This document shows, piece after piece, positions 1,845 to 16,446 of a DNA stretch of 64,000 bases (position 1 is the first letter of the stretch; each line of letters opens with the position of its first letter). The notes under the pieces were generated by a model. The model did no database searches. It saw nothing but the letters and a program-made list of their open reading frames with translations, and had not been told where the DNA came from. The position numbers were made by a program, and so were the translations under genes. Source of the DNA: Candidatus Omnitrophota bacterium (GTDB lineage Bacteria; Omnitrophota; Gorgyraeia; JACQQV01); assembly GCA_016206785.1 (NCBI GenBank), contig JACQQV010000021.1, forward strand, positions 63,509-127,508, read 5' to 3'.

Positions 1845-2930
1845 TTACGGGGCGGGTCGTCTCAAGCGCTCCTCGGCCAGAGCGAGCGCTTCGTAGTAAG
1901 GAACAGGGGCATCGAAGTTGTCCGCCTCCCCCCATCCATCCCGAGGGCAGCCACGGTAAAGGGGATGAAGACTTTTTCCGTCGGAAGGCTCTTTTTTCGC
2001 ATAAGCATCAAACCAATCAAGAAGGGTGCGCCACCCCTCGTGAACGGTTCCCTTCATTAGATTATACTTAGGGAAAGGAAAACTGACGCAAAAATTCATC
2101 TCCCCATAGGGAGTAATCGCGCAGGAGTTTTGGGCAGCCCGGCAATTCATCCGCCCTTTCCATCGCCTCGGTCCTTCCTCTCCTTTCTCGAGCGGTTTGT
2201 GGTAAACAAGAGGAAGGGGATCTTGAAGAAGTTGAGCCGCTTTGTCAGGATCGAGGCGGTAAACAAGCGGCTCGAGTGAACCGTCCGACTTGGGATGAAT
2301 TACGGTACTGGTTACGGCTCGGATTCCCCACCCCTTGGCCATCGCCTGCATCCTCTCCACTTCCTCAACGTTCACAGTCATGGCAGGAATGATGAGCGTT
2401 ACGGGGATCTTCTTCTTGATCAACCGCTCAATTCCAGAGATACATTTAGAGAAGGAGCCTGGAACAGAGGTCACTCTTTCATAAATCTTCCTTGTCGCTC
2501 CATAAAGTGAGAGGTCGACCTCCAGAGGAAGGAGAGATTGGAGACAATCGGCAATTTCCTCTGTCAGGAAGGTCCCATTTGTTTTCAGGGTAACGGCGAA
2601 TCCCTCCTCTTTAGCGCGAGTCAAAATGTCAAGAAAGTCTCTCCGCGTAAACATCTCTCCGCCTGTCAGGGTTAAAGAAAGGCATCCTTCTGTTCGGAGT
2701 TCTTTAAAAATAGAAATGATTTTCTCCGTCGGCATCTCCTCTTTCTTGGCCCTATGGGTAGGATTATAGCAATGGACGCAGCGGAGATTGCACCCGTAGG
2801 TCAGTTCCATAGTCGCCTCTAAAAGGGTCCGTGAGGATTCTGTTTTGCTAACGACGTTATCCCAAAACTCGATAGGAGAACGCTCCGGGATCGAAGGGGT
2901 TTTAGGATCTAGCGAGGGCATAGGCTTCAT
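1845..2930 (-). CDS. radical SAM/SPASM-domain peptide maturase-like protein (PqqE/MftC-like), 361 aa
   Basis: ORF track. Carries the CxxxCxxC motif LTYGCNLRCVHCYNP and a C-terminal Cys-rich SPASM-like region (CRAAQNSCAITPYGEMNFC). Paralogous to the two rSAM genes at 4040-6087. Confidence 0.8.
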   Translation of the reverse strand: MKPMPSLDPKTPSIPERSPIEFWDNVVSKTESSRTLLEATMELTYGCNLRCVHCYNPTHRAKKEEMPTEKIISIFKELRTEGCLSLTLTGGEMFTRRDFLDILTRAKEEGFAVTLKTNGTFLTEEIADCLQSLLPLEVDLSLYGATRKIYERVTSVPGSFSKCISGIERLIKKKIPVTLIIPAMTVNVEEVERMQAMAKGWGIRAVTSTVIHPKSDGSLEPLVYRLDPDKAAQLLQDPLPLVYHKPLEKGEEGPRRWKGRMNCRAAQNSCAITPYGEMNFCVSFPFPKYNLMKGTVHEGWRTLLDWFDAYAKKEPSDGKSLHPLYRGCPRDGWGEADNFDAPVPYYEALALAEERLRRPAP

Positions 2931-3831
2931 CAGGACGCGCCGCCTCCTTTAGAAAAGAAATAGCGCTTTGTTCTTTCACAAATCCGAATTGATAGCATGG
3001 GACACTCGAAAAAAGCTCTTCACAGAAGGCGAGCGCTTTTTGAATCCGTCCGCCATCCCAGTGTGGGAGGAAAAGTTGTGGGAGAAGAACCTCTGGGAAG
3101 TCTGACAGTGAAAGAGGCTTAAGAGAATTCTGAGAAGCGTGCTGAAGAAAAAAAAGTCCCCTAAGAGGCGCCGATTCTTGAGAGATTCGGAATGTATCCC
3201 CTGGCCACGGAGTTCCATGAAGGAAAAAAGAAGCGCCATCCTTTCGAATAATGACGGTCTCATCGCTCAAGATAGAAACGCCTCCTGTTCCAAGAAACAG
3301 ATGCGCAAGCGTACTCTTTCCCGAGCCAGAAGGACCCACAAAAGCTCTTCCCTCTCCCCCTTCTCGAATCCCAAGTCCATGGACAACGACCCCCTCTCCT
3401 TGACTTAAGAGGTGCACAAGAAGAATCTGCCCTAAGGGCTTCATAAATTCTGTAAAGGGCCAGCGGGGCTTTATCGGCGGAAAGAGTCTATGGAGAGGTC
3501 CAGAAACCCATCCAGGGGCAGCATAGACTTCACCTTCCGAGAAATCTTTCGTAAGGTGAGCAAGGAACTGTCTCTGCTTTGTCTTTGAATGAAAGGTTTC
3601 GATCCAATAATGGCCATCGCTTTCGTAAAGGGCCCAATGGTCTTTCAGTTCAAAAAGGACCCTTTCTTTTAAGAAATCGGGGAAACCGTTCTCGCAATGA
3701 ACCGTCAGATGAACCCTTGGTTTCCCCCGAAGAGGAAAAAGATCGTACCTGAAGGGAAAATCTCGTGGATGAGAATTTTCCCACTCAATGTGAAATCCAA
3801 TTCCTCCGATTTCGAGACTGAAAGAAGGCAT
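2902..3831 (-). CDS. HPr kinase C-domain-like P-loop protein (HprK-related kinase, as found in PqqD/lasso-peptide-kinase contexts), 309 aa
   Basis: The C-terminal half carries VVHGLGIREGGEGRAFVGPSGSGKSTLAH, which resembles the HprK P-loop GxSGxGKS(E/T). There is no N-terminal HPr-kinase regulatory domain. It lies 8 nt downstream of the candidate precursor ORF. Confidence 0.6.
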   Translation of the reverse strand: MPSFSLEIGGIGFHIEWENSHPRDFPFRYDLFPLRGKPRVHLTVHCENGFPDFLKERVLFELKDHWALYESDGHYWIETFHSKTKQRQFLAHLTKDFSEGEVYAAPGWVSGPLHRLFPPIKPRWPFTEFMKPLGQILLVHLLSQGEGVVVHGLGIREGGEGRAFVGPSGSGKSTLAHLFLGTGGVSILSDETVIIRKDGASFFLHGTPWPGDTFRISQESAPLRGLFFLQHASQNSLKPLSLSDFPEVLLPQLFLPHWDGGRIQKALAFCEELFSSVPCYQFGFVKEQSAISFLKEAARPDEAYALARS

Positions 3832-3842
3832 CTAAGGGGTAC

Positions 3843-4034
3843 CTAAGACGAGATCGCGCTGTTTCCCTGCGTTCTACTCCAACTTCGGCATCCATTTGCC
3901 CTACAGGTATTCGTACCGCTGTCAGAAGCAGAGGTCCCATTGGTGGCGCACTGAGAGAGGATCGCCTGTTCATGGTTTAACCGGATTCTAAAAATTTTCG
4001 GTGTTTCATACATCCTTTTCATTGTCTCTTCCAT
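3843..4034 (-). CDS. candidate RiPP precursor peptide, 63 aa (MEETMKRMYETPKIFRIRLNHEQAILSQCATNGTSASDSGTNTCRANGCRSWSRTQGNSAISS)
   Basis: A small ORF wedged between the rSAM gene (ends 4040) and the HprK-like gene (starts 3831). Minus-strand upstream sequence is gataAGAAGGAGGTaaagacaATG, a near-perfect Shine-Dalgarno about 7 nt before the ATG. The peptide has a charged leader-like N-terminus, then a Ser/Thr/Gly/Asn-rich segment with 3 Cys, and ends in Ser-Ser. Confidence 0.45.
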   Translation of the reverse strand: MEETMKRMYETPKIFRIRLNHEQAILSQCATNGTSASDSGTNTCRANGCRSWSRTQGNSAISS

Positions 4035-4039
4035 TGTCT

Positions 4040-5119
4040 TTACCTCCTTCTTATCTTTTCAGCCAAAAGATGCGCTGTCTGACAGAAATGATCGACCGGC
4101 ATCTCACTCTCTCCATTTTCAAAACGTGCCGGAAAAGGCATCTTCCCGCACATCGAATAGACCGTACACTGCCGACAGGGCGAATCGGTTTGATAGGTCA
4201 TTGTACGAATTTTTGGAAAAACTTCTTGGATCGCTTCCTGAAAGGAGTAATGTTTTAATGAAACTCTCGGCTCCCCAATAAAAGTACACGTTCCAAGCTC
4301 TCCCCAAGCCGAAACATGAAACGTATTGGTCCCGCAACCGCAGCGGTAAAGCCGATCGGTCGGCTCATCCGAAATTTCCACACAACGATCCTCGGTATCT
4401 ATGTCCTCGCCATTTATTTCAAGTTCAACAATTTCCTCTGGAGTGAGTCGATAGGCGCAGGGCTTCAAAGAACCATTCAAATCAGGATAGATATCGGTAC
4501 TGAAACGGAACTCCAGCCCGAAACTTTCGACCAGTTCTTTAATCTCATGGAGCCTTCCCCTGTTGAGCGTCATCGCTTTTGTTTTCACCTTGACCGGAAG
4601 TTTCCGTTCCACAAGAAGCCGCAATCCTTCAACAAATCGCTTGAAGGATCCGGGAACCTGAGTCACCGCGTCGAAAACCTCTTCCGTTCCTCCGTGGCAA
4701 CTCGTCTCAATCAAAAAAGGTGGGTCCTTCGCAAGCCGATCCGCAATCTCGGGAGTGATTATGGTGACATTCGTAAAAAGAATGAGAAGAAATCCTTTTT
4801 TCTTTGCATAGTCATAAATATCAAAAAAGTCCTTCCGCATGAAGATTTCGCCACCCGTAAGACAAAGCCAGAGACACCCCGCTTCATGGATTTCATCGAT
4901 CATCCGAAGGACCTCTTCATAAGAAAGCTCTTTTTGAATGTCCTGAGGGTTATTGTGGCAGTCGGTATAGCAGTGGACACAACGGATATTGCATTTATAG
5001 GTAAGTTCGATCTGGCCCCGGATTGGCATCCTTAAGTCATATCCCTTGTCATTGATCGCACTGCTGAAATCATGATACTCTATCTCAGGAATCGTTTCCT
5101 TCATCTTAAGGCCTCTCAC
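4040..5119 (-). CDS. radical SAM/SPASM-domain protein, 359 aa
   Basis: ORF track. Carries IELTYKCNIRCVHCYTD (CxxxCxxC) and SPASM-like C-terminal cysteines (CRQCTVYSMCGKMPF, CGCGTNTFHVSAWGELGTCTF). Confidence 0.8.
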   Translation of the reverse strand: MRGLKMKETIPEIEYHDFSSAINDKGYDLRMPIRGQIELTYKCNIRCVHCYTDCHNNPQDIQKELSYEEVLRMIDEIHEAGCLWLCLTGGEIFMRKDFFDIYDYAKKKGFLLILFTNVTIITPEIADRLAKDPPFLIETSCHGGTEEVFDAVTQVPGSFKRFVEGLRLLVERKLPVKVKTKAMTLNRGRLHEIKELVESFGLEFRFSTDIYPDLNGSLKPCAYRLTPEEIVELEINGEDIDTEDRCVEISDEPTDRLYRCGCGTNTFHVSAWGELGTCTFIGEPRVSLKHYSFQEAIQEVFPKIRTMTYQTDSPCRQCTVYSMCGKMPFPARFENGESEMPVDHFCQTAHLLAEKIRRR

Positions 5120-6087
5120 GGAGTTGAAGAAACCGCTTTGATTGGGATAAATCCGTTCTTCTTGAACATAAACTCCTTTTTAGGAAACCGGCATGGAAAA
5201 TGGGGAAGGTGATTGTAAAATCCATCGTGAAAAGAACCTTTTCGAAGGTCGTAACCCTTCATCCGGTTCCCGGAACAGAGTTGAAGCATCCCATACGCAT
5301 CGATATGAAAATTAAAGAAGCCTGATTCGCATTGGTAGGTTTCTGCCTCTCGTAATTGGATTTCCTTTTCCCGAAGCATCTGCGGATCTTTTTCCTCGAT
5401 CTCTCTCAGTTCTTTTTCAGAAAGTTGATATTCAAAAACATCCTCTGAGCCATCCAGGCGGTTCCGGATCTCCTCGCCAAATTTGAAGGAAACGTTTCCC
5501 AGACCCTTCACAAAAGCCCTGATCTTCAGAATCTCATCCCGATTCACCGTGAGTCCCGTCACCTTCAAAACAAGGTGGAGGTTTCTTTCTAAAAGAAGGT
5601 TGATCGCCCGTAATACTTTCTGAAAAGAGCCTTCTCCCTGCGTCACCTTTTCAAAAATCTCTTTCGATGTGGCATGAAGACTGATCTCGACGGAAAAAGG
5701 AGGATTTTCTTTCAGAAAATCGGAAACCTCCTCGGTAATCAAGGACCCATTGGTAAAAAGGGTGATTAAAAATCCCTTGTCCTTGGCAACCTTATAGATC
5801 TGGAAAAAATCTTTTCGCATAAAGATTTCGCCACCCGTCAAGGTAAGCCAAAGACATCCTCCTTTATGAAGTTCACCTAAGATCCGTAGGACTTCCTCAG
5901 TTTGAAGTTCTTTGGGAAAATATTGAGGATGATTATAGACATCTGTGTAGCAATGGATACAGTGAAGATTGCAGCGGCAAGTCAATTCCCATTGTCCGAT
6001 AAGAGGGAGTCTTCCCCTCTCACTCTTTGCGACGAGCCGCTTGAAAAACTCACGATCCGTAACAGAAGAAAGAAAATCGCATGCCAC
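5116..6087 (-). CDS. radical SAM/SPASM-domain protein, 323 aa
   Basis: ORF track. Carries WELTCRCNLHCIHCYTD (CxxxCxxC) and C-terminal Cys residues (CESGFFNFHIDAYGMLQLCSGNRMKGYD). It overlaps the downstream paralogue by 4 nt, which suggests translational coupling. Confidence 0.8.
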   Translation of the reverse strand: MACDFLSSVTDREFFKRLVAKSERGRLPLIGQWELTCRCNLHCIHCYTDVYNHPQYFPKELQTEEVLRILGELHKGGCLWLTLTGGEIFMRKDFFQIYKVAKDKGFLITLFTNGSLITEEVSDFLKENPPFSVEISLHATSKEIFEKVTQGEGSFQKVLRAINLLLERNLHLVLKVTGLTVNRDEILKIRAFVKGLGNVSFKFGEEIRNRLDGSEDVFEYQLSEKELREIEEKDPQMLREKEIQLREAETYQCESGFFNFHIDAYGMLQLCSGNRMKGYDLRKGSFHDGFYNHLPHFPCRFPKKEFMFKKNGFIPIKAVSSTP

Positions 6088-6092
6088 CCGCT

Positions 6093-6395
6093 CTATTCTC
6101 CCTTTTCCGCACCCGCAAAATGTTTCGGCTCTATGAGTCCTTCCCTCCTCAGTTTTTTAAGGAAGGAAAGCACATCATGCTTCACCCTTTTGGGTTCTGC
6201 TTCGAAGTTTTGTTCAATGTGTGTGATAAGTTCCTGAACGGTTCTACTCCCGTCCAACGCCTCCCAGATCGCTGCGCCAACAGGAGTGAGTTTGAGGAGG
6301 TCTCCCTCATCCTGATCCACGAGGATCGCTTCTTCCTCTACCCGTCGCCAAGGAATTCTTCCATTCTTCTCGAAGATATCCGTAAGTCTAAACAT
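6093..6395 (-). CDS. PqqD-family (RRE-like) small protein, 100 aa
   Basis: MFRLTDIFEKNGRIPWRRVEEEAILVDQDEGDLLKLTPVGAAIWEALDGSRTVQELITHIEQNFEAEP... matches the PqqD/RRE pattern: P..R..GE..L......L.N..A..IW.L.DG..T..E. Confidence 0.65.
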   Translation of the reverse strand: MFRLTDIFEKNGRIPWRRVEEEAILVDQDEGDLLKLTPVGAAIWEALDGSRTVQELITHIEQNFEAEPKRVKHDVLSFLKKLRREGLIEPKHFAGAEKGE

Positions 6396-7947
6396 GAAAA
6401 TGGATGAGGCGTAAAAAATAATTTTTTGTCTCTAGCCAAAGAAGAAAAAGGATTTTCCTTGCTTCTCTTCCCATTTTGTAGGTGAGGCCCTCACGAAAAT
6501 AGATCCAAAAAAGACGGAGATGTAGAAGTAAGGGATGGAAACCGAGACGCGCCGCTTCAAGTAGGTTCTCTTTTGCCAGACGAGACTCTTTTTTCTTGAG
6601 AAAGGCGGAACCGATCCAGAATTTCAGAATCGCCTCCGGCCCTTTGAGTTCGAGCGACTTCCGGAAAGCACTCAGGGCTCTATCCCACTCTCCCTGCTCG
6701 AAAAAAAGAGACCCTATCCCATAATAAGCCGTGGCCAGTCTGGGATTCTTCGAAAGGGCCTCTTCATAATAAAAGAGCGCCTGGGAAAAATCTTTCTCCG
6801 CCCTAAATGTATGGCCCAAACCGCAGAGTGCATGGGCGTGATTCGGGTCGAGGGTAAGAATCTTTTTGTACTCTTCCTCTGCCTTTTTCCATTGACCAAG
6901 ATTCTGATAGGCCGGTCCAAAATTGTTGTAGGCGGTGGCGTAGGTGGGATCCGCGGAAACCGCTTCTCGATAAAGTCGGGAGGCCTCTGTTTTCTCTCCC
7001 CTTTTTAGAAAGAGCAAAGAAAGATTGTAAAAGCTTGCAGCATCTTTTGGATTGACCCCAAGGGCCTTTCGATACTCCAAAATCGTCTCCTCCACCTTCC
7101 CCTCCTCTTCAAAGGCTTGTGCAGATCTTTTGTGATGATAAGCATCGTTTGGAGCGGAGGGGTCTCGGATAAGTTGTGCAAGGGCGTCTCCAAAATATTT
7201 ATAAGGAAGTGGAGTAAATCCCCCCTCGACAGAATAGGCAATCGTGACACAATCACTCCGGATACCCTTTGATCGCAAGGCGTCGACAACATTCTCTGGG
7301 AAGAGCCACGGTTTCTTACAGCGAGGGTCTTCATCCCCATGTTCTAAAAACCCTGAGATGAGGAAATCGGTATCAATATCAAGAAGAACCTCTTCTTCAA
7401 TAGTGGGAAGGTTCTGAAGAGTGCAGACAATCAATGGAAAGCCATAAAGTGTTGCCTGAGCCTTTGTTCCCTCAATACGGATATCGGTAAACGCTTCTGG
7501 ATGGTTTCTCCGAAATTCTCGAAAGATATAACCCATCTCTTTTTCCCAAGAAACCCCTCGGGGGGCTTCCGGGGTCGCCCAATAAAAAGCCCGAAGAAGG
7601 CCCTGCCGGAGAGCAGGGCAGATATAATTTCCGATATGGACGAAGGACTCTGTCCCTCGATCTGTGAAGTTCCAAAAGATCTTTTGTTGGGTAAGCGCTT
7701 CTAATTCTTGAGGAGAGGAGATACTGAGGAGATCGGAGAAGGACCTCTCAGGAATCCAATTGAAGTCGATGTGGGCATCGATATGGAGGAGGATGCGGTT
7801 TGAAAAGTTCCCTCTCTGCCAGGCCCAGAGGGCCTCATCATGATCTTCCATCAGGGTGACGGCAGGGAGAGGATCAATTCCTACCCGATCGTCTTGGGGA
7901 GTTGAAGACCTTCTTAAAGAAGGTTGGGTCGCTAACGCGTCGGTCAC
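6388..7947 (-). CDS. fusion protein: N-terminal UPF0489-like domain (putative metal-dependent hydrolase fold) plus C-terminal TPR repeats, 519 aa
   Basis: The N-terminus carries MEDHDEALWAW...ILLHIDAHIDFNW, which resembles the EDHHEVL...HFDSHPD signature I associate with UPF0489. The C-terminus carries at least 6 TPR-like repeats (AYNNFGPAYQNLGQWKKAEEEYKKILTLDPNHAHALCGLGHTF...). Confidence 0.6.
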   Translation of the reverse strand: MTDALATQPSLRRSSTPQDDRVGIDPLPAVTLMEDHDEALWAWQRGNFSNRILLHIDAHIDFNWIPERSFSDLLSISSPQELEALTQQKIFWNFTDRGTESFVHIGNYICPALRQGLLRAFYWATPEAPRGVSWEKEMGYIFREFRRNHPEAFTDIRIEGTKAQATLYGFPLIVCTLQNLPTIEEEVLLDIDTDFLISGFLEHGDEDPRCKKPWLFPENVVDALRSKGIRSDCVTIAYSVEGGFTPLPYKYFGDALAQLIRDPSAPNDAYHHKRSAQAFEEEGKVEETILEYRKALGVNPKDAASFYNLSLLFLKRGEKTEASRLYREAVSADPTYATAYNNFGPAYQNLGQWKKAEEEYKKILTLDPNHAHALCGLGHTFRAEKDFSQALFYYEEALSKNPRLATAYYGIGSLFFEQGEWDRALSAFRKSLELKGPEAILKFWIGSAFLKKKESRLAKENLLEAARLGFHPLLLHLRLFWIYFREGLTYKMGREARKILFLLWLETKNYFLRLIHFHV

Positions 7948-7950
7948 CGA

Positions 7951-8235
7951 TTATTTCTCTCGGATGATTCCGGTTTCCTTAAATTGCGCCAGAAGCCCCA
8001 AAAGATCTTTCTCTGCAACGTGAGGATCTATCTCAAATTCGGAGATAACCGTCTCGCAGACCTCTCGGACCGATTTCTTTCCATCAATCAGTTCCCAAAT
8101 CCTCGCCCCTACCTCATTCAACGTGAAGATGGCAGGTTCTTCCCCTAAGGTTTGACGAATAGGGACAAGGACCGTTTCTTCCGCGATTTTCCTTGATACA
8201 ATATTGGGAGATTTTTCGTAACTTGTTTCTAGCAC
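7951..8235 (-). CDS. PqqD-family (RRE-like) small protein, 94 aa
   Basis: ...PNIVSRKIAEETVLVPIRQTLGEEPAIFTLNEVGARIWELIDGKKSVREVCETV... fits the PqqD pattern. This is the second stand-alone copy in the locus. Confidence 0.65.
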   Translation of the reverse strand: MLETSYEKSPNIVSRKIAEETVLVPIRQTLGEEPAIFTLNEVGARIWELIDGKKSVREVCETVISEFEIDPHVAEKDLLGLLAQFKETGIIREK

Positions 8236-8278: not shown

Positions 8279-9085
8279 TCAAGGTTTTTGTGGGGTGAGA
8301 ATCGCATTGCAGTTGCTGAAATCCATCTCCACAACTTTAAAGTTCGAGTTCTCTATCTCACTCAAAAGCTCCGAGGGTTTGCTGAAAATGTGCCAATAGT
8401 GACCCATAAAGCAGACGTCTCCTTCTTCTAGCTCCCGATTGCCGCCAGAAAGGATTGCAAGCCACTTTTTGAGCCGGAACTTCCAACCCTTTTCCCGGAA
8501 ATCATCTCTACCACAAAACTCTAGATAAAAAAATCCGTCGTCTTTGAGATGAGATCGCATCTTTCTTAAAAAGGCGATCCGCCTTGTGCGGGTAGGAATT
8601 TCGCTATACATCGACTGGCTCAGAAAAAGCGCGTCATGCTTTCTTGCCGGTGATAAACTATCAAGTACATTTCCCACTTCAAAGTGGCAATTTTTTAAGG
8701 AAAGGGCACGGACATGTTCTTTTGCTCTTTCTACAAGATCCTGGGAGGTCTCGATTCCCGTAACCTCAAATCCTAATTTCGCCAAGGCGAGGGATTCCCG
8801 ACCACCGCCAGACATCAGTACAAGACACTCCTTTTTTCCTTTTAAATATTTTGTCACAAATTGAGATTCTTCTGGGCTCAGTCCCCTCGTTCGTACCGCT
8901 TCCCCCGCCAAAGCCTCTGAAAAGTCCCTCCGATTATAAAACTGTTCAACAAATTTTTCGAGATCTTTAGGTTTTGAGAGAACTAGTACAAGTGACCCAA
9001 AGGCTGAAGAAATCTTTTCCTGAAAACGATTCAAGAGAAGGTCGATGCGCACCAAAACGGAAACAAGGAAAAACCGAGCACTCAT
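8279..9085 (-). CDS. class I SAM-dependent methyltransferase, 268 aa
   Basis: Carries the motif I-like segment CLVLMSGGGRESLALAKLGFEVTGIETSQDLVERAKEH, and DALFL/post-I motifs. Confidence 0.65.
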   Translation of the reverse strand: MSARFFLVSVLVRIDLLLNRFQEKISSAFGSLVLVLSKPKDLEKFVEQFYNRRDFSEALAGEAVRTRGLSPEESQFVTKYLKGKKECLVLMSGGGRESLALAKLGFEVTGIETSQDLVERAKEHVRALSLKNCHFEVGNVLDSLSPARKHDALFLSQSMYSEIPTRTRRIAFLRKMRSHLKDDGFFYLEFCGRDDFREKGWKFRLKKWLAILSGGNRELEEGDVCFMGHYWHIFSKPSELLSEIENSNFKVVEMDFSNCNAILTPQKP

Positions 9086-10161
9086 CTATTTTTTAAGAGG
9101 GGTTCAATGACTTCTACCAAGGCTTGGGCAGCGAGTCGATGACCACGTTCATTGAGATGAAACGGGTCTCCTTTTCTATAAAGTTTTTCTCTCAGGTGAC
9201 GTTGTAAACTTTCCCGGATATCGATCAGCGGAACCTGCAAGTTGTGCGAAATGCGTCGGAAACGATAAAAGGAGGGACGGATTTTTAAGATCCCCAGCTC
9301 GTGAAGATCCGGAAAATAGGCAAACAACACTTGAGCGTGAGAGCGACGTGCTAACTGAACCAGCTCGCGCAACCGTTGTTCCGCCTCCTGCCAGTAGCGC
9401 GCCTCCCGAGATCCTGTTGCGTTGTAAGAGACCTGAAGCGCCCAAAAAGAAATAACGGAACCGATGCGCTGATCCAAAAATTTCAATAAGAAACTGTGGG
9501 GCAGCAAGGAAGAGTAGAAATTGTGAAAAGGCGACGATGGAGAAGAAACCTCGGGTTCCGGTAAAAGACAAAGCCTCCCTTGATCATCGACGTTAAAGAG
9601 GGATGGGTAAATGTCGTTCCTATAGAAATTAACAATAACAATATCCGGTCTCAAAAGAGGAAGGAGTTCCTTAAAGATACGAACTTCCTGTTCAGTATTA
9701 TAATTATCAGAGGCGGCATTGAATACAATAGGAGGATTACGTGGAAATTTTTCCTTGAGTAACACTTCAAGTCTTTTACAAAAAGTTGTCTCAAAAGGAA
9801 CCCCGTAGCCAAATGTGATAGAGTCTCCCAAACAGAGGACGACATCGTCTTTTTCTTTCACCTTCGGCCATTCCGGTCCCCGCCAACCCTGTGTATTGAT
9901 TTCATACCATGCCCCTTGCCAGCGAATGCGTGCTCCTCGTCGATACCGGTGGACGACCTCAGGATCTGCGACAAAAAGACCGGGAATGTCGGACATGAAA
10001 AGATAAGGGTCTGGCGCATTTTCCGGCAAGGCCTTGATCACCTCCGCTTCCGGCATACGACGAGAGACAAAAACAAACCGATAAAATCGGAGGATCCCTT
10101 CTGCCGCCAAGCAAGCGAGGCACAAGCCGACTACCACAAGAAAAAATCGTGTACGAGTCAC
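9082..10161 (-). CDS. SGNH/GDSL-family hydrolase with N-terminal signal/TM segment, 359 aa
   Basis: Carries VVLCLGDSITFGYGV (the GDSx block). The N-terminus MTRTRFFLVVVGLCLACLAAEG is hydrophobic. The start codon, by my reading of the sequence, is GTG (cac 10159-10161). Confidence 0.65.
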   Translation of the reverse strand: MTRTRFFLVVVGLCLACLAAEGILRFYRFVFVSRRMPEAEVIKALPENAPDPYLFMSDIPGLFVADPEVVHRYRRGARIRWQGAWYEINTQGWRGPEWPKVKEKDDVVLCLGDSITFGYGVPFETTFCKRLEVLLKEKFPRNPPIVFNAASDNYNTEQEVRIFKELLPLLRPDIVIVNFYRNDIYPSLFNVDDQGRLCLLPEPEVSSPSSPFHNFYSSLLPHSFLLKFLDQRIGSVISFWALQVSYNATGSREARYWQEAEQRLRELVQLARRSHAQVLFAYFPDLHELGILKIRPSFYRFRRISHNLQVPLIDIRESLQRHLREKLYRKGDPFHLNERGHRLAAQALVEVIEPLLKNR

Positions 10162-10178: not shown

Positions 10179-10207
10179 TTGACCTCCTGAAAAAACAGAT
10201 TTATGCT
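10179..10207 (+). promoter_or_regulatory. sigma-70-type promoter candidate for the 10231 gene: TTGACC-N17-TATGCT
   Basis: TTGACC at 10179-10184, a 17-nt spacer, then TATGCT at 10202-10207, about 24 nt before the ATG. Confidence 0.4.
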
Positions 10208-10230: not shown

Positions 10231-12126
10231 ATGGTAGAAACAGTGAAGCCTATTGGTGTTTTAACCGATCTTCTTCAAATAACGGACATTCCAGAGATTA
10301 TCGATCTTTTGATCGCGTCCAAGAAGGCCCGTTTCACCATTGAAGGCTTCAGCATGTACCCCACCCTCCGAGTAGGAGACATCGTTGAGGTGGACCCCCT
10401 AACAAAAGAAACGCTTGAAGTAGGAGACCTTGTTGTTTTTCAAAAAGAAAAGAAACTCATCTGTCACCGCCTGGTAGAGATTTTTGAGAAAAACGGGGAG
10501 GCGTGGATTAAGACAAAGGGGGATACGGTCGAGGAGAGTGACACCCCACTCGCCCTTCGTCAGATCCTGGGAAAGGTGACGCGCATTGAGCGAGACGGAA
10601 TTCCTCGGATCCCCTCGGCCGTTCCTCAAAAACTTTCCTTTGCAGAAATCATCTTCTTCTCTGCCTATCGGCAATTCGGGGGAAAACTCAGACCGAAACT
10701 GAGAACAGTTTTCTTACGCAGTCTCTCTTCTCTTTTATTCCGCCGCGTGTATCGCTTCCTGTTCCGTCCCGATGTGATTTATTCTGTCAGAATTCCAACT
10801 GCTTCGACTCCTGATCCGAAATTCTGGCGGTCTGTTCAAAGTCTCCCGGGGGCGAATGAGTCTTTACAGGACGCTTCGGTCTATCGCTTTTTTGCAAAGG
10901 TAGGCAAAAATGTCGTTGGAAGTCTTGAGGTGCGGACTCTCGATAAAACCGCTTCGCAATGGAGGGTTTCCCATCTTTTCGTGAGGGCAAGGTACCGGGG
11001 GTGCCACGTTGCAACAACACTCCTGAGAAGATCGTTTCAGAGGCTCAGACGACAAGGAGCCTCCTTATTAAGCATAGAAGTGGGTCCTCAAAATCGTCCC
11101 GCACTTTCCCTTCTAAAACAACTAGGCTTCGACGACGCCGTACAAAAAGATCCTTTCGTCCTTCAGAAAGACCTTTCGTTCCCGCTCAAGCGCTTAAGAG
11201 GCGAAAAAGAACTGCAACCGTTTCTTTATCACGCTCTTCCCTCTGATACGCTCAAAGAAAGCTTCCTCAGGAGCGTCGCAAAACACCTCTTCTTCGAACA
11301 GGCCCTTCTTGAGATAGACACCGTTTTCAAAAATGCGGGAATACCTTTTATCGTACAGAAGGGAATGGCACTTGCGTATACCCTTTACCCCGACCCTGCG
11401 ACGCGACCGATGGTGGATATCGATCTGTATCTACGTAAAAACGATGTCCCCTCGGCCATATCCCTTTTAGAAGGACTCGGCTATGAACTGGGAGCAGCCA
11501 AGTTTCGAGAAGAACTGATCACCTTCGGGGGAGAGCTCAGCTTCCACAAAAAAAATGCCCCTTTTGTTGAACTCCACTGGTGCCTTGAACAGTATGAGCG
11601 ATTGAAAGGAATTGTAAAAGTTGACGAGGAAGACCTGTGGAAAAGGACTGTCTCCTATACGATTTCAGGAAGAAAATTTCTGACCCTCTGTTCAGAGCAT
11701 CAACTGCTCGCGCTTTCCATCCACCTCGGTCTCATTCATCGGTTTCGTGGCTCTCTCAAGTGGTTTCTGGACATCGATCAGTTCGTCATGAAATTCGGGG
11801 AGGACCTGGATTGGGAGGAACTTTTTCAAACCGCACGGCGATGGGGAATTGAACGGGTGTTTTGCCAAGTGCTCCTTGCAACCCAGGAGCTCTTCAACAC
11901 CCCCCTTCCTCCTCTTCCGATTCAAAATTCTTCATTCTTCCTGAGACATCCCATCTTTCAATGGTTCCTCCCAGATCGTCCCTCCGACCGCCTCCGGGTC
12001 CTCTTCCGGATCTTCTTCCCGAGCCGGGAATGGCTCATCTACCGATATCGCCTCAAACGGCGCGACCTCATCCCCTTCCACCGCTTCCTCCATCCTCTCT
12101 TTGTTCTTATCGGCAAGACAAGGTAG
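10231..12126 (+). CDS. tri-domain protein: N-terminal S24/S26-type peptidase-like domain, central GNAT acetyltransferase, C-terminal nucleotidyltransferase-like (NTP_transf_5-type) domain, 631 aa
   Basis: The N-terminus carries EGFSMYPTLRVGDIVEVD...DLVVFQKEKKLICHRLVEIF...KTKGDTV (compare signal-peptidase/LexA G-S-M-x-P-T-L...GD motifs). The central region ...SLEVRTL...VRARYRGCHVATTLLRRSFQRLRRQGASLLSIEVGPQN is GNAT-like. I assign the C-terminal region to uncharacterised nucleotidyltransferases. The upstream RBS is GAGAAGGatg. Confidence 0.6.
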   Translation: MVETVKPIGVLTDLLQITDIPEIIDLLIASKKARFTIEGFSMYPTLRVGDIVEVDPLTKETLEVGDLVVFQKEKKLICHRLVEIFEKNGEAWIKTKGDTVEESDTPLALRQILGKVTRIERDGIPRIPSAVPQKLSFAEIIFFSAYRQFGGKLRPKLRTVFLRSLSSLLFRRVYRFLFRPDVIYSVRIPTASTPDPKFWRSVQSLPGANESLQDASVYRFFAKVGKNVVGSLEVRTLDKTASQWRVSHLFVRARYRGCHVATTLLRRSFQRLRRQGASLLSIEVGPQNRPALSLLKQLGFDDAVQKDPFVLQKDLSFPLKRLRGEKELQPFLYHALPSDTLKESFLRSVAKHLFFEQALLEIDTVFKNAGIPFIVQKGMALAYTLYPDPATRPMVDIDLYLRKNDVPSAISLLEGLGYELGAAKFREELITFGGELSFHKKNAPFVELHWCLEQYERLKGIVKVDEEDLWKRTVSYTISGRKFLTLCSEHQLLALSIHLGLIHRFRGSLKWFLDIDQFVMKFGEDLDWEELFQTARRWGIERVFCQVLLATQELFNTPLPPLPIQNSSFFLRHPIFQWFLPDRPSDRLRVLFRIFFPSREWLIYRYRLKRRDLIPFHRFLHPLFVLIGKTR

Positions 12127-12350: not shown

Positions 12351-13206
12351 TCAGACGCGGACCCAGCGAATTCCTTTTTCCTTGCGGAACCAAGTCTCCT
12401 GACGTTTGGCGTATTGGCGGGTTAAGCGTTGAATATGGGTAATAGCCTCTTCGAGGGAAGATTCCCCTTTGAGGTAAGAGAAAAGTTCTTGAAGCCCGAT
12501 GATTCTTTTTGCAGTAAAACTCAGTCTCTTCCGGAGAAGCCTCTTAACTTCCGCAACAACATCATTGCGAATCATCTTTTCCACCCGACGATCGATCCTC
12601 TGATAAAGAACTTTTCGGGGGTGGCGTAATCCGATTTTCTGAATCCGAAACAAAGCTGAGAACCCACCTCCCCCCTCTGCGAACTCCGAGGGTTTTCTCC
12701 CGGTGACTTCGTAAATCTCAAGGGCGCGAATCAGACGATAGGTATCGTTGGGATGAATCTTTTTTGCCCGACGGGGATCGATCGCACGTAATCTTTCGTA
12801 CAAATAAGCGTTTCCCTTCTCCTTCACAAGCCTTGAATATTTTTTCCGAATCGTGGGATCGGCTTTGACGGGAGCGTGCTTTCCTCCCAAAAGGGCCTTG
12901 AGATAAAAACCGCTCCCCCCCACAAGGATTGGCACCTTTCTTCGGCGTGCAATGTCTTGAATAACACTTTTTGCGCGTTGGGAAAATTCAGCCGCGCTAA
13001 ATTCCTTATGTAGAGGGAGAAAACCGATAAGATGATGGGGAATTTTCTTTTGATCCTCTGGGAGGGGTTGGTTGGTGAGGATTGGAACGCCTCGGTACAC
13101 CTGCATGGCGTCGCAGGAGATAATTTCACCTTTGCATCGTTTCGCCAGGCGGAGGGCAAGCCGGCTTTTCCCGCTGGCGGTAGGGCCAACAATGACAATA
13201 AGTTTT
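12351..13206 (-). CDS. miaA: tRNA dimethylallyltransferase MiaA
   Basis: LIVIVGPTASGKSRLALRLAK...ISCDAMQVYRGVPILTNQP... The track ORF extends to 13298 and overlaps the upstream ATPase gene. The likely true start is a GTG (VKKLIVIVGPTASGKS) at about 13206. Confidence 0.85.
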
Positions 13207-13207
13207 T

Positions 13208-14023
13208 TCACCTCGCTTCCTGAACAACTTCCTGGATGGTCTGCTCGTCGATGGAAGTGGCTTTTTTGCCCAATCCTGAGAGAAGGGACAGATTGCATAA
13301 AGTATTGATCTTCCTCGGAATGCCTCCGCTATGTTCGTAGATGAGCTGGATCGCATCGTCCGTAAAGATCGGGTCCTCTCGACCGGCGGTCGTAAGCCGG
13401 GTCTGGATATAATGGCGCGTCTGCTCTTCGTCCAAACCCTCCAGATGGCATTTGATCTCGATCCGCTGCGAAAAGGGCTTGAATCGGTTCACATGTTCCC
13501 TCAACTCAGGTTGGCCGAACAAAAGGAGGGTCAGTAAAAACTGGTCGTTTGACTGAAAGTTGAGGAGGAGCCGCAATCCCTCCAGCACAGAAGGATCTTC
13601 GATCACATGGGCCTCATCCACAATAATGACCGTCTCGCTCCCATCCTTCAAATTATCGTAAAGGATATCCTTCAGCTCATTGAGGAGAAATGTCGCCACA
13701 AGATCCGATTTCTTCGTCGGGAGGTTCTTTCCGCCCCCTAATGCTTGAACGATTGCAGCCAGAAGTTCAATGTAATCCAGTTTTGGATTCCGGATGAAGG
13801 CGATCTTATATTTCTCTCCAACCAGCCCTTTCAACAGGGCTTCCCCCAATAACGTCTTTCCACATCCAAAGATCCCTGTCAACATGGCTGCCCCCACCTT
13901 CTCTTGGACGGCATACAAGAGCCTTGAAAGGGCTTCGTCATGTTGGGGGGAGGCGTAGAAGAATCGGGGATCGGGAGTATTTTGAAAGGGCATGAGATTG
14001 AATTTCCAATATTCTTTATACAT
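13208..14023 (-). CDS. ExeA/MshM-like AAA ATPase (putative secretion ATPase of PEP-CTERM loci), 271 aa
   Basis: Walker A is LTGIFGCGKT and Walker B is VIIVDEAH. The gene lies next to the PEP-CTERM/exosortase locus. Confidence 0.7.
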   Translation of the reverse strand: MYKEYWKFNLMPFQNTPDPRFFYASPQHDEALSRLLYAVQEKVGAAMLTGIFGCGKTLLGEALLKGLVGEKYKIAFIRNPKLDYIELLAAIVQALGGGKNLPTKKSDLVATFLLNELKDILYDNLKDGSETVIIVDEAHVIEDPSVLEGLRLLLNFQSNDQFLLTLLLFGQPELREHVNRFKPFSQRIEIKCHLEGLDEEQTRHYIQTRLTTAGREDPIFTDDAIQLIYEHSGGIPRKINTLCNLSLLSGLGKKATSIDEQTIQEVVQEAR

Positions 14024-14032
14024 GTTCAGACT

Positions 14033-14458
14033 TCAATTCAACATAATCTTTTCGTCTTTTTCGTTATAGGTAAACCGAGGTTTGCCATTCACCTTATGCA
14101 CCTCGGCGTCCGTCACGTTGAGGGTCCCATCCGGCGAAACCGTCACCCAAAAATCGACATCGAGGGCTTCCCCGGTCGTCTGGTCCACAAAATCGGCACA
14201 GGAGAAATAACCATCCTTGGTGGATAGTTTTCCGACCCGCTCATGGACCCGTTGAAAGGTGAGTTTTCTCTCTTGGCCTGTTTTATCGTCATGGATCGGG
14301 AAAAAGCCGCCGTTCTTATGGGTCACTTCCAAGGCATACGTCTGCATCGCCGTCCGGATTTCCTCATGGGTCGGCTCTACAGCATAAAGCTTCGTTCCAG
14401 CGAATGCCACAACGCCTGCGATGACCGCATATAAAAGAAGACGACTGTCGCCTTTCAT
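14033..14458 (-). CDS. hypothetical secreted/periplasmic protein, 141 aa
   Basis: ORF track. The N-terminal signal-like segment is MKGDSRLLLYAVIAGVVAFAG. No recognisable family. Confidence 0.45.
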   Translation of the reverse strand: MKGDSRLLLYAVIAGVVAFAGTKLYAVEPTHEEIRTAMQTYALEVTHKNGGFFPIHDDKTGQERKLTFQRVHERVGKLSTKDGYFSCADFVDQTTGEALDVDFWVTVSPDGTLNVTDAEVHKVNGKPRFTYNEKDEKIMLN

Positions 14459-14459
14459 C

Positions 14460-15431
14460 CTACACCTCCTTTTGTTTTGCGTGAACGTCTCTAAATTGAA
14501 ACTCTGTTTCTACCCTTTGAAAAGGTTTCCCGTCCAACTCGACATACGGATAGAAAAAAATATTGACCGGCTCGCCCTTCTGTTTTGGAACCAGTTGGAT
14601 ATTACGCCCTGTACTGATGAGAAGACGGTTTGCATCATAAGTTCCGAAGTAATACTCCCGCTTCTCTGGGTATTTCCATGCTTCCGAGGCATCCACGGAA
14701 ATCCACCCCTTTCCGTCGACATAAAACTCGGCCCAGCAGTGATACCCTGGAATTTTACCCTCTGATTCCTGTTCAGGGATAGGGATCCCGATTTTAAAAC
14801 GCGAGGGAATTTTACTCGCCCGCGCCAAGGAGATAAAGAGCGAATGAAAATCGGTGCAGTTCCCTTTGCCGACAAGACAGGCTCGCGCCGTATCCCCATT
14901 TCCCCATCCCGGTGTCGTCTTGTCATACTGCATATGGGAAAGGACGTAGTCATAAATGGCCCTTCCCTGTTCTAAAGGAAACACCTTCCCTTGGGTTACT
15001 TCTTTGGACAACCCCTGAATTCTTTCATCCACCACCATCCATTGGCCCGAGCCGAGGTGGAGACGTCTTTGAAAGGGGGTCTCCTGCAAGGGGTTTCTTC
15101 TTTCCTCTACAGTCACATGGTAGGTAATGGCAACGTCGATCTTTTGGGGAAGTGGCGGCTTCAGAAAAAGATGGAGGATCTCATTGCCATAGCGAGGTTC
15201 CTGAAAGATTTGATAAGGGGAAGAGGCGACGATTTTTCGGTCCAGGATCCTCTGGTTGGCCTCTGTGCGTGCCAAAGGGATCCAGATCCGGATCTGTTTT
15301 GCGTCGGGGGGAATTTCCTGAATCAAGGCATGGTAAGTGAGCTCAAACTCCCGCTCTGATTCTCGGGCTTCACTTTTTGAATCACTCAATATCAATAATG
15401 GGGTTACAATAAGTACTATCCATTTCCTCAT
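14460..15431 (-). CDS. transglutaminase-like cysteine protease domain protein with signal peptide
   Basis: Carries GKGNCTDFHSLFISLARASKIPSRF...GYHCWAEFYVDGKGWISVDASE, the Cys-His-Asp transglutaminase core. The likely start is MRKWIVLIVTPLLILS at about 15431, preceded by a GAGGAG RBS. The track ORF is over-extended to 15524. Confidence 0.75.
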   Translation of the reverse strand: MRKWIVLIVTPLLILSDSKSEARESEREFELTYHALIQEIPPDAKQIRIWIPLARTEANQRILDRKIVASSPYQIFQEPRYGNEILHLFLKPPLPQKIDVAITYHVTVEERRNPLQETPFQRRLHLGSGQWMVVDERIQGLSKEVTQGKVFPLEQGRAIYDYVLSHMQYDKTTPGWGNGDTARACLVGKGNCTDFHSLFISLARASKIPSRFKIGIPIPEQESEGKIPGYHCWAEFYVDGKGWISVDASEAWKYPEKREYYFGTYDANRLLISTGRNIQLVPKQKGEPVNIFFYPYVELDGKPFQRVETEFQFRDVHAKQKEV

Positions 15432-15444
15432 CTCTTTTTTCTCC

Positions 15445-16242
15445 TCATTCTTTTTGGGCGGGCGAAAAGGGGGTGACCAGAAGCCCCAGGAAGCTCTGCC
15501 ACCTCTCTGCTTCAAATGCGTCAAGTCCGTAATGGAGGGTCAAGATGTCCTCTTTCCTCCGGAAACTTTTAGCAAAGCGGTCCCAGAAAGAAAAAATACT
15601 GGAATAGTTCGAATCGGTCTCCGGCTGGAAGTGGGAATGATGGACCCGGTGCATATTCGGGGTGACAAGGAGGATGCGAAAGAGACGATCCCACCTTTCA
15701 GGCAAAGCCACATTGCTATGATGAAAAAGGATAATCGGAAGAAGAATCGTTTCGTAGAGGATCAGTTGCCAAAGAGTCAAGCCTAAGAGATACAGGATGC
15801 CGAATCTCACAAGAGAAGAAAGAGTCAGCTCTCCGATATGAAACCGGAGTGCTGTGGTGACGTCTAACTGGGGATCGCTATGATGCATCCTGTGAAACCG
15901 CCATAAAAAAGGCATCTGGTGGTTCGCCCTATGCCAAAGGTACATCCAAAGATCAAAAACAAAAATGGCGATAGCGGCTTCGGTCCAGAAAGGGATTTCG
16001 ATCCAGTGGAGGAGTCCGAACCCCTGGAATTCCGCCGCCTCTGTGATAAACGCGGTCGCCCCTGAGAAAAGGAATCCCGTCATCGCTCCATTCATGAGTC
16101 CCATCGCAATATTGCGGGACCCGTGACGGAGTCTTTCCTTTCTTTCCTTGAAAAGCGGAAGCCACGCTTCAAGGATCAAAAGTAGCGAGAGGATCACGAT
16201 CTCAAGAAGAATCTTCCCTTCTTTCAAACCCTCTGGATCCAT
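15445..16242 (-). CDS. fatty acid hydroxylase/sterol desaturase superfamily membrane protein, 265 aa
   Basis: Carries the histidine boxes HRANH...HRMHHSD...HHSHF. Confidence 0.7.
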   Translation of the reverse strand: MDPEGLKEGKILLEIVILSLLLILEAWLPLFKERKERLRHGSRNIAMGLMNGAMTGFLFSGATAFITEAAEFQGFGLLHWIEIPFWTEAAIAIFVFDLWMYLWHRANHQMPFLWRFHRMHHSDPQLDVTTALRFHIGELTLSSLVRFGILYLLGLTLWQLILYETILLPIILFHHSNVALPERWDRLFRILLVTPNMHRVHHSHFQPETDSNYSSIFSFWDRFAKSFRRKEDILTLHYGLDAFEAERWQSFLGLLVTPFSPAQKE

Positions 16243-16446
16243 GGGTCTATTCTACCATAAGGCGGGTCCTGTCTCGGCATTTCCCATTCGTCCTCGCTCC
16301 ACCCATCTCCGGCCGGCTCACCATCTCGCCGGCGCTCATGGCGTGGCCGCACTTATTCGTGCGGCCATTCGCCCCCGTGGGGGCTGAGTAAAACAGGTGG
16401 TCCCCTTCCGCTGCGGGCGAATGGGAGCCCTTGCCGAGCCACCCGC
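16243..16446. other. GC-rich structured intergenic region with a perfect 8-bp hairpin (16337-16358 ggccgcac-ttattc-gtgcggcc) and repeated CCATTCGCCC / GGGCGAATGG motifs
   Basis: Plus-strand CCATTCG occurs at 16283 and 16364, and its reverse complement CGAATGG occurs at 16418. The region lies between the MFS stop and the desaturase start. No convincing ORF. Confidence 0.4.

Follow-up and report, generated by a model that had tools for sequence, protein, structure and literature searches.

In the window, the whole stretch of 64,000 nucleotides analysed here, a plus-strand ORF (10231..12126; 631 aa, ATG start) encodes a tri-domain protein that on balance appears to be a fused maturation or tailoring enzyme of a SynChlorMet-like radical-SAM/SPASM RiPP pathway, as judged from sequence and gene context. 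This protein comprises an S26B-like peptidase, a helical linker, a GNAT acetyltransferase, a PF14907 nucleotidyltransferase and a conserved C-terminal tail. The first-pass annotation had proposed a peptidase, a GNAT acetyltransferase and a nucleotidyltransferase within one polypeptide, and all three domains score above their Pfam cutoffs. The protein is 100% identical to the NCBI record 'MAG: signal peptidase I [Candidatus Omnitrophica bacterium]', and this automatic name is misleading.

The ORF is divergent from a minus-strand operon ending at 10161. The 69-bp intergenic region carries a sigma70-like promoter, TTGACC-17-TATGCT (10179..10207, plus strand; a consensus match only), and a GA-rich ribosome-binding site just precedes the ATG. 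The protein has no transmembrane segment, its top 19-residue Kyte-Doolittle window reaching 1.33. As it lacks a membrane anchor, it should act in the cytoplasm, a location that we infer both from the absence of a hydrophobic segment and from the presence of acetyl-CoA- and NTP-dependent domains in the same polypeptide. The conserved linker (10621..10845, plus strand; residues 131-205) contains predicted helices at residues 137-165 and 168-177, and the stand-alone peptidase genes encode an equivalent C-terminal helix, either hydrophobic or amphipathic. Structure models were of moderate confidence (mean pLDDT 73 and 68).

The peptidase domain (10303..10620, plus strand; residues 25-130) matches Pfam Peptidase_S24 over residues 29-116 with 27.7 bits (cutoff 23.3) and the NCBIfam model of archaeal-type signal peptidase I, TIGR02228, with 59.1 bits, above the curated cutoff of 51.85. 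The family profile matches SEC11C (E 2.3e-13) and SEC11A (E 5e-12) far better than bacterial signal peptidase I (E 4.5e-5) or LexA (E 1e-3). The S26B affiliation, which the first-pass annotation had advanced tentatively, is thus borne out, and the motifs on which it was based are all present: GFSMYPTL with Ser41 (codon 10351-10353), CHRL with His79 (10465-10467) and KGDTV with Asp98 (10522-10524), all on the plus strand, align with boxes B, D and E of SEC11A/C. Ser41, His79 and Asp104 (10540-10542) align with Ser56, His96 and Asp122 of SEC11A, which form its catalytic triad (bioRxiv 10.1101/2020.11.11.378711), and Asp98 aligns with SEC11A Asp116.

These four residues are invariant in all nine close tri-domain homologues, including the Ser and the His in place of Lys that had been singled out at first reading. 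In the wider family, His79-Arg80 and Asp98 are found in all of the 102 peptidase-domain copies, whereas the nucleophile position is occupied by Ser in 92 and by Cys in 5 (the other 5 copies are truncated) and the position of Asp104 by Asp in 73 and by Glu in 6. The simplest explanation for the exchange of Ser for Cys at position 41 is that the catalytic nucleophile lies there. That Ser/Cys, His and Asp are so strictly kept in the 102 copies speaks for a catalytic role. Enzymes of the S24 type, such as LexA and UmuD, use a Ser-Lys dyad; this dyad is absent from the family, in which all 102 copies have His as the base.

The GNAT domain (10858..11175, plus strand; residues 210-315) matches Acetyltransf_1 (PF00583) over residues 213-300 with 45.5 bits (cutoff 20.7) and has the GNAT fold. 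Its neighbours are mostly N-alpha-acetyltransferases (RimI, Ard1/Naa10, Naa30 and Naa50). The CoA-binding loop, R/Q-x-x-G-x-G/A in motif A, reads R256-G-C-H259-V-A261. Position 259 is Gly in 37 of 42 relatives and Arg in P0006, and His occurs only in the window protein. Owing to this atypical His259, the window copy may bind acetyl-CoA poorly.

The nucleotidyltransferase domain (11245..11910, plus strand; residues 339-560) gives the strongest Pfam score of the three, with 157.8 bits for NTP_transf_5 (PF14907) over residues 339-556 (cutoff 31.2). K377-G378, D396-x-D398, E435, E447 and H449 do not vary between the close homologues, and the two Asp residues of the metal-binding DxD, D396 and D398, are retained throughout a set of 74 diverse relatives. 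This part of the protein has no sequence match in the PDB, whether searched as a single sequence or as a profile; its modelled fold, of the Pol-beta type, is nearest to ANT(2'') and LnuA. The C-terminal region described at first reading as nucleotidyltransferase-like is therefore a genuine nucleotidyltransferase domain. It is followed by a conserved tail (11911..12123, plus strand; residues 561-631) that stand-alone PF14907 proteins also have. A reading as a MenT/AbiEii-like toxin was dropped, PADLOC having returned no credible defence-system match.

Peptidase and nucleotidyltransferase are combined in 89 of the 169 relatives examined, and 28 of these 89 also carry the GNAT; single permuted forms have the order nucleotidyltransferase-S26 and S26-nucleotidyltransferase-GNAT. 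By sequence, the conserved core is the peptidase plus the nucleotidyltransferase, the GNAT being an optional insert. Other fusions join PF14907 to Wzy_C O-antigen-ligase-like domains (P0034 and P0062), and P0042 combines S26, nucleotidyltransferase and Poly_export/SLBB in one protein. At three loci, the two core domains are encoded by split genes. L007 has a nucleotidyltransferase gene followed by an overlapping gene for a 160-aa S24/S26-like protein; in L044, genes for PqqD, a radical SAM enzyme, a precursor, ScmC and S26 are divergent from that of the nucleotidyltransferase, and L023 is similar. The search for stand-alone homologues in related clusters, proposed at first reading, has thus yielded split peptidase and nucleotidyltransferase genes beside pqqD, radical SAM and scmC genes. 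The fusion had also been put forward as not seen described. Indeed, no experimental study of the peptidase-nucleotidyltransferase family was found in full-text literature searches, but the fusion is not rare, as it is abundant in metagenomes. Full-text searches on PF14907/NTP_transf_5, on SynChlorMet, on the combination of HPr kinase, PqqD, nucleotidyltransferase and radical SAM, and on S26 or signal peptidases in RiPP pathways gave nothing relevant; two of the four 'S26' matches listed were opened and proved to be figure numbers.

The divergent operon of the window, entirely on the minus strand, begins with a GDSL/SGNH hydrolase that has a hydrophobic N-terminus (9082..10161), followed by a SAM-dependent methyltransferase (8279..9085) whose homologue is found next to the gene of the tri-domain protein or of the nucleotidyltransferase in L005, L007, L009, L010 and L012. 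Then come a PqqD-family peptide chaperone (RRE; 7951..8235), a protein combining UPF0489 (peptide-arginase-like, weak) and TPR (6388..7947), and a second PqqD-family chaperone (6093..6395). Two radical SAM proteins related to SPASM-type peptide maturases (5116..6087 and 4040..5119) have NCBIfam rSAM/SPASM matches that are all below cutoff and give no SPASM domain match; a third such protein (1845..2930), whose matches are also below cutoff, lies at the other side of a putative precursor peptide and a ScmC/HprK-like P-loop protein. The precursor (3843..4034) has 63 aa, a leader with YETPKIFRIRL, three core Cys and a C-terminus in ...AISS; a 58% identical homologue, P0177, occupies the same operon position in L057. 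The ScmC/HprK-like protein (2902..3831), a putative peptide kinase, is homologous over its full length to a ScmC protein of PF27840 (E 8e-23). The operon includes no GT-C or Wzy_C gene.

This context is largely conserved. The gene lies beside genes for PqqD, radical SAM/SPASM and HprK-like (ScmC) proteins in 6 of 7 informative Omnitrophota lineages, and its split form does so in other phyla. The tri-domain gene adjoins pqqD, with or without scmC and radical SAM genes, in the window, L001, L005, L009, L010 and L011/L057, and L057 repeats the operon order of the window. Neighbours in L001, L005, L009 and L010 have precomputed Pfam PF27840 ScmC matches. Of 42 loci around PF14907 genes in other phyla, 20 have PqqD and 19 have ScmC-like matches; outside Omnitrophota, these ScmC-like matches mostly cover the P-loop region only. 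The P0009 lineage (L003, L004 and L014) has an intact gene but no radical SAM, PqqD or ScmC gene within 10 kb, and miaA is the only neighbour kept in every lineage. The genes upstream in L003 are pseudopilin-like and not RiPP genes; two 84-aa genes among the upstream genes of L003 were rejected as precursors, as they look like small secreted or membrane proteins. A PMT_2 GT-C protein ends the operon in L001 and L005, and a Wzy_C protein that of L044. The link to a RiPP-like operon that the first-pass annotation had drawn therefore holds, through the conserved neighbourhood and the split-gene versions, with one lineage lacking RiPP genes nearby.

Precursors adjoining the gene have a Y-x-x-P-[KEQ]-[ILV] leader and Cys-containing cores, and the C-terminal residue is Ser or Thr in all seven. 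No consistent AxA-like site (small residues at -3/-1) precedes the first Cys in these seven precursors, so the cleavage site is not predictable. For the fused maturation enzyme favoured here, the pathway can be pictured as follows. PqqD would bind the precursor via its leader. The radical SAM/SPASM enzymes would then cross-link the precursor, and the HprK-like ScmC would phosphorylate its Ser/Thr tail. The nucleotidyltransferase domain would decorate the phosphorylated tail, by analogy with the hexoses that PsmK/PsmN place on phospho-Ser. The S26B-like domain would cut off the leader in the cytoplasm, and the GNAT would finally acetylate either the N-terminus freed in this way or an amine of a side chain. 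A broader proposal, which we advance only tentatively, is that these proteins form a new class of RiPP leader peptidases: soluble, cytoplasmic Ser(Cys)-His-Asp enzymes of the S26B type fused to a PsmN-like nucleotidyltransferase and, in many cases, to an N-acetyltransferase as well. A single polypeptide would then cut the leader, cap the N-terminus and decorate the phosphorylated C-terminal Ser/Thr, giving undescribed tail-modified thioether peptides that in some lineages may be passed to GT-C or O-antigen-ligase-like membrane enzymes.

The membrane enzymes found in some of these loci also allow a role in envelope glycoconjugate or polysaccharide synthesis, which we consider unlikely. The nucleotidyltransferase would activate a sugar-phosphate or a nucleotide, or transfer it onto a lipid- or peptide-linked intermediate used by GT-C or O-antigen-ligase-like enzymes, and the peptidase would act on another envelope protein. 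The PF14907-Wzy_C fusions, the Poly_export/SLBB protein P0042, the PMT_2 and Wzy_C genes that end the operons of L001, L005 and L044, and the pseudopilin-like genes of L003 are all consistent with this role, as is the fact that hexose addition is the only known effect of PsmN. However, the loci with GT-C or Wzy_C genes still carry PqqD, radical SAM, ScmC and precursor genes, so that glycosylation is more simply seen there as a further step of peptide tailoring; moreover, the window operon has neither enzyme, and its peptidase is unanchored and fused to cytoplasmic enzymes. Self-immunity or product inactivation, in which the GNAT and the ANT/Lnu-like nucleotidyltransferase would neutralise the mature peptide or another antibiotic in the producer, seems less probable still. 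What is conserved beside these domains is a protease with its triad intact, which immunity by chemical modification would not require; a nucleotidyltransferase of the same type has a biosynthetic role in pseudomycoidin and, in lasso clusters, is joined to the leader peptidase; and the GNAT is no further from N-alpha-acetyltransferases than from resistance enzymes.

Two further readings concern the peptidase domain. It could be a self-cleaving or regulatory module like that of LexA/UmuD, or a non-catalytic peptide-binding fold presenting the substrate to the GNAT and the nucleotidyltransferase. We give this reading a low probability, similar to that of immunity, because the invariant His-Arg base and the S26B 'TKGD' box contrast with the Ser-Lys of S24, because the profile favours SEC11C over LexA, and because the Ser/Cys, His and Asp are so strictly conserved. 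That the protein is a standard signal peptidase I of the secretory pathway, as its TIGR02228 score and its NCBI name would have it, is highly improbable given the missing transmembrane anchor, the fused acetyl-CoA- and NTP-dependent enzymes and the RiPP-like neighbourhood; furthermore, a related genome encodes a conventional Peptidase_S26 of 280 aa in a gene of its own (L005, 16977-17819).

In many radical-SAM RiPP clusters, no leader peptidase has been assigned. To our knowledge, a cytoplasmic S26B-type enzyme would add a new fold to the proteases listed for RiPP pathways. If the maturation role is correct, a cytoplasmic S26B leader peptidase would depart clearly from the characterised S26B enzymes. 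The repeated fusion of a peptidase to a nucleotidyltransferase, with the S26 fold here and the unrelated B2 fold in lasso clusters, suggests by analogy that PsmN-type enzymes may act on the leader-bound precursor. The tri-domain protein would offer a compact, expressible system for working out PsmN-type chemistry. The S26-PF14907 architecture is also a simple genome-mining handle for SCM-like clusters, which occur in several phyla, including Omnitrophota, Chloroflexota, Acidobacteriota, Gemmatimonadota and deltaproteobacteria.

The N-terminal domain has the same fold as the S26B enzymes SEC11A/C, yeast Sec11, Bacillus subtilis SipW and the archaeal signal peptidases, with which it shares box B (S-M-x-P), box D (H-R) and box E (T-K-G-D...D). 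Characterised S26B enzymes work at the outer face of the membrane. Unlike them, the tri-domain protein has neither a membrane anchor nor partner subunits; its peptidase is joined to cytoplasmic enzymes that depend on cofactors, and its family lies in a RiPP-operon context and includes relatives with a Cys nucleophile. A small signal-peptidase-like protease, SodX, removes the N-terminal propeptide of a cytoplasmic substrate, nickel superoxide dismutase; the match to its model TIGR02754 is weak (19.6 bits for a cutoff of 63.25), and context and substrate differ. In microviridin biosynthesis, the GNAT MdnD caps the N-terminus exposed by leader cleavage. As with MdnD, the GNAT is encoded with RiPP genes, but here it is fused to the presumed leader peptidase and its CoA loop is atypical.

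The SynChlorMet (SCM) cassette, HPr-rel-A and GeoRSP are NCBIfam/TIGRFAMs families defined from genome context. The window operon is built from the same parts as these systems, namely a ScmC/HprK-related P-loop protein, PqqD-family chaperones and radical SAM/SPASM enzymes. Its scores remain far below the equivalog cutoffs: 23 for ScmC (cutoff 125), 44.8 for ScmD (cutoff 100) and 76-87 for ScmE/F (ScmE 80.9 and ScmF 87.1; cutoff 400). By these scores, the operon is related to the SCM cassette and is not an equivalog-level member of it. None of the matched SCM-type models covers the peptidase-nucleotidyltransferase protein.

The closest functional parallel is the lasso peptide pseudomycoidin, for which PsmN is required for the addition of hexoses to the phospho-Ser made by the HprK-like PsmK. 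The DxD of PsmN (D134/D136) is essential, its mutant being inactive, and no in vitro activity of PsmN has been demonstrated. The assignment of PsmN to PF14907 comes from its published description and from shared structural neighbours, not from direct sequence comparison: its Phyre2 templates were 4xje and 5cfs, and these structures are among the best matches of the nucleotidyltransferase model obtained here. Four Firmicutes PF14907 loci (L047, L051, L053 and L055) were considered as lasso clusters and rejected; they lie among housekeeping genes, so that the link to PsmN stays indirect. In lasso clusters of Firmicutes, such a nucleotidyltransferase is 'in several cases fused to the B2 protein', the leader peptidase. 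The fused protease is a transglutaminase-like Cys protease there, whereas it has a Ser-His-Asp S26B fold here; the window also differs by a radical SAM/SPASM core chemistry instead of lasso cyclisation and by the inserted GNAT. PsmK/PsmN and the window nevertheless have in common the DxD, an ANT(2'')-like nucleotidyltransferase, an HprK-like kinase, a PqqD-type leader-binding protein and a precursor ending in Ser.

The ORF located at 10231..12126 (+) starts with ATG, is preceded by a sigma70-like promoter (10179-10207) and a GA-rich ribosome-binding site, and is separated by 69 bp from a divergent minus-strand operon. The three-domain fusion proposed by the first-pass annotation is real: the ORF is intact, and Pfam places the domains of its 631-aa product at residues 29-116 (Peptidase_S24), 213-300 (Acetyltransf_1, a GNAT) and 339-556 (the nucleotidyltransferase, or NTase, NTP_transf_5/PF14907; 157.8 bits). 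An NCBI entry automatically named 'MAG: signal peptidase I [Candidatus Omnitrophica bacterium]' has exactly the sequence of this protein, whose N-terminus matches TIGR02228 (archaeal-type signal peptidase I, NCBIfam) with 59.1 bits for a curated cutoff of 51.85.

In a PDB search with the single sequence, the peptidase region matched only SEC11C and SEC11A, with GFSMYP, CHRL and TKGD...D facing SGSMEP, VHRV and TKGDNNAVDD, respectively. Once the SEC11A numbering is adjusted for the PDB chain being shifted by one residue, Ser41, His79, Asp98 and Asp104 of the window protein correspond to Ser56, His96, Asp116 and Asp122 of SEC11A; in the human SPC, Ser56/His96/Asp122 form the catalytic triad and Asp116 is a stabilising residue (bioRxiv 10.1101/2020.11.11.378711). 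The profile of the family (74 members) is far closer to SEC11C (E 2.3e-13) and SEC11A (5e-12) than to bacterial SPase I (4.5e-5) or LexA (1e-3), and therefore the S26B-like assignment, tentatively made earlier from the His found in the Lys position, is correct. The window protein has no transmembrane segment (the highest 19-residue hydropathy window is 1.33) and its peptidase shares a polypeptide with enzymes that depend on acetyl-CoA and NTP; from these two facts we infer that this domain would be cytoplasmic. In this, it would differ from characterised S26B enzymes. Its sequence places the domain in S26B, but its topology does not.

A search of 5.8 billion clusters brought up eight other tri-domain proteins, 42-58% identical, all of which keep the four peptidase residues as well as K377, G378, D396, D398, E435, E447 and H449 of the NTase. 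With E < 1e-30, a profile matched 293 of the 1.84 billion representatives searched. Domains were mapped with sub-profiles in 169 proteins, a sample being confirmed by Pfam: 89 carry the peptidase and the NTase in any order (28 of these with a GNAT), 13 the peptidase and GNAT only, and 67 the NTase only. Permutations occur once each, in P0097 (NTase-peptidase) and P0058 (peptidase-NTase-GNAT). These counts indicate that the peptidase-NTase fusion is common and forms the conserved core of the family, the GNAT being an optional insert.

The Ser/His dyad, on which the first-pass annotation made catalysis depend, is conserved. His-Arg and Asp98 do not vary across 102 copies of the peptidase, of which 101 have Met42 and 99 have Pro44; 92 use Ser as the nucleophile and five use Cys, the other five being truncated. 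The Cys forms (C-M-x-P; P0029, P0063, P0079, P0119 and P0167) keep His-Arg and the box E Asp. Such a replacement, confined to a single position while all else stays the same, is as expected for a functional nucleophile. Both forms are encountered among otherwise alike relatives of ~745 aa. Motif A of the GNAT reads R-G-x-G-x-G/A in relatives (R256 in 42/42, G257 and G259 in 37/42 each). Position 259 (codon 11005-11007), in most relatives the central Gly of the acetyl-CoA loop, is His in the window protein and Arg in its orthologue P0006. This His makes the activity of the window GNAT uncertain, and the domain may be weakened in both proteins.

Reading away from the tri-domain gene, the minus-strand operon encodes a GDSL/SGNH hydrolase (9082-10161), a methyltransferase, the peptide chaperone PqqD, a 519-aa UPF0489/TPR protein (6388-7947), a second PqqD, two SPASM-maturase-like radical SAM enzymes (rSAM), a 63-aa putative precursor (3843-4034; annotated as hypothetical protein HY590_03375), a ScmC/HprK-like P-loop protein and a third rSAM. 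The hydrolase, missing from the simpler operons of four related loci (L001, L005, L009 and L010), is probably exported or anchored because its N-terminus is hydrophobic. The 519-aa protein carries an N-terminal UPF0489 at the Pfam threshold (27.7 vs 27 bits) followed by TPR repeats, and weakly matches NF052474, 'peptide arginase, FlmR/OhkR family' (32.9 bits, cutoff 350); its L057 counterpart is a TPR-PqqD fusion. As the precursor core has three Arg, an Arg-to-ornithine conversion is conceivable.

The tri-domain gene also adjoins a PqqD gene, in some cases along with genes for ScmC, rSAM/SPASM and a methyltransferase, in L001, L005, L009, L010 and L011; the extension of the latter, L057, repeats the window gene order with a precursor 58% identical. 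The L012 sequence stops after a divergent methyltransferase fragment. In all tri-domain loci outside the window, miaA is convergent with the gene. In the window, the tri-domain gene separates the variable RiPP region from a conserved Omnitrophota core block downstream (12351-18863, minus strand: miaA, AAA_22 ATPase, 141-aa ORF, transglutaminase-like protein, fatty-acid hydroxylase, MFS transporter, miaB), which is syntenic in L001, L005, L009 and L012; as listed, its miaA and AAA_22 ORFs share ~90 bp. An AbiEii-type nucleotidyltransferase toxin gene and an 81-aa partner, inserted next to miaA (L011 3730-4398 / L057 1955-2623), appear unrelated to the RiPP genes. In the P0009 lineage (L003, L004 and L014), the intact tri-domain gene adjoins miaA, and no rSAM, PqqD or ScmC gene lies within 10 kb; genes for pseudopilin-like proteins (N_methyl motif), a DUF4900 protein and two 84-aa secreted/membrane proteins are found upstream. 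This lineage may encode the substrate at another site, or the protein may serve another role.

Split versions, of the kind that the first-pass annotation had proposed to look for, carry the same RiPP-gene association. In L007, a methyltransferase and ScmC precede a stand-alone NTase, which an overlapping 160-aa S24/S26-like gene follows. In L044 (a deltaproteobacterial MAG), which L023 resembles, the NTase gene diverges from those for PqqD, rSAM, the precursor, ScmC, a 156-aa peptidase and a Wzy_C protein. According to local profiles, 42 PF14907 loci of other phyla include 20 with PqqD, 19 with a ScmC-like match (in many cases to the P-loop region only) and eight with the peptidase, fused in five.

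Seven small ORFs adjoining rSAM genes encode putative precursors (window 3843-4034 (-), L057 10001-10183, L010 676-852, L001 7502-7672 (-), L005 2977-3342 (-), L044 7995-8207 (-) and L023 3843-4025). They share the leader Y-x-x-P-[KEQ]-[ILV]-x-[RK]-[ILV], with the first Cys 18-20 residues past its Tyr, variable Cys-containing cores and a C-terminal Ser or Thr in all seven (AISS, GISS, STAS, SSTS, SATS, PANS, ISAT), which recalls paeninodin and pseudomycoidin, where the C-terminal Ser is phosphorylated. They show no obvious cleavage motif of the AxA type.

Other roles are less well supported than RiPP maturation. PADLOC gave no defence-system match. An ordinary signal peptidase, as the protein is annotated, must be set against the lack of a transmembrane segment and the fusion to cofactor-dependent enzymes, and a LexA-like or non-catalytic N-terminal domain against the SEC11-type profile and the conserved nucleophile. 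A self-immunity enzyme would fit the GNAT and NTase folds, both classic among antibiotic-modifying enzymes. A role in envelope glycoconjugates draws on PF14907-Wzy_C fusions (P0034, P0062), an S26-NTase-Poly_export/SLBB fusion (P0042), the L003 lineage devoid of nearby RiPP genes, and the membrane proteins that end related operons, PMT_2 (GT-C; L001 5476-7494 (-) and L005 1015-2976 (-)) or Wzy_C (L044 4387-6456 (-)). These fusions and operon ends hint that the peptide tail undergoes lipid-linked glycosylation or ligation.

For RiPP maturation, the closest precedent is the pseudomycoidin lasso cluster, in which the C-terminal Ser receives a phosphate from the HprK-like PsmK and the addition of one or two hexoses to this phosphate needs PsmN, an 'uncharacterised nucleotidyltransferase' modelled on 4xje and 5cfs and inactive as a D134A/D136A mutant (PMC6993621); in vitro activity of PsmN is still lacking (PMC11912497). 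In several Firmicutes lasso clusters, the NTase is fused to the leader peptidase B2 (PMC8498205). By analogy with this shared logic, maturation could be viewed as follows, each step and their order being conjectural. The rSAM/SPASM enzymes would cross-link the precursor in a leader-dependent manner and ScmC would phosphorylate its tail, which the NTase domain would then decorate; the S26B-like domain would cut off the leader in the cytoplasm, and the GNAT would acetylate the new amine.

Neither the peptidase-GNAT-NTase architecture nor an S26-type RiPP leader peptidase was found described in the literature, the library being limited, so that this absence is no proof; the first-pass annotation had not seen the fusion described either. 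The window operon scores far under the equivalog cutoffs of the SCM, HPr-rel-A and GeoRSP systems, which it nevertheless resembles. The domain families and the tailoring logic are known, and their combination here is widespread but uncharacterised. The logic is that of the lasso clusters, whereas the protease fold and the core chemistry differ.
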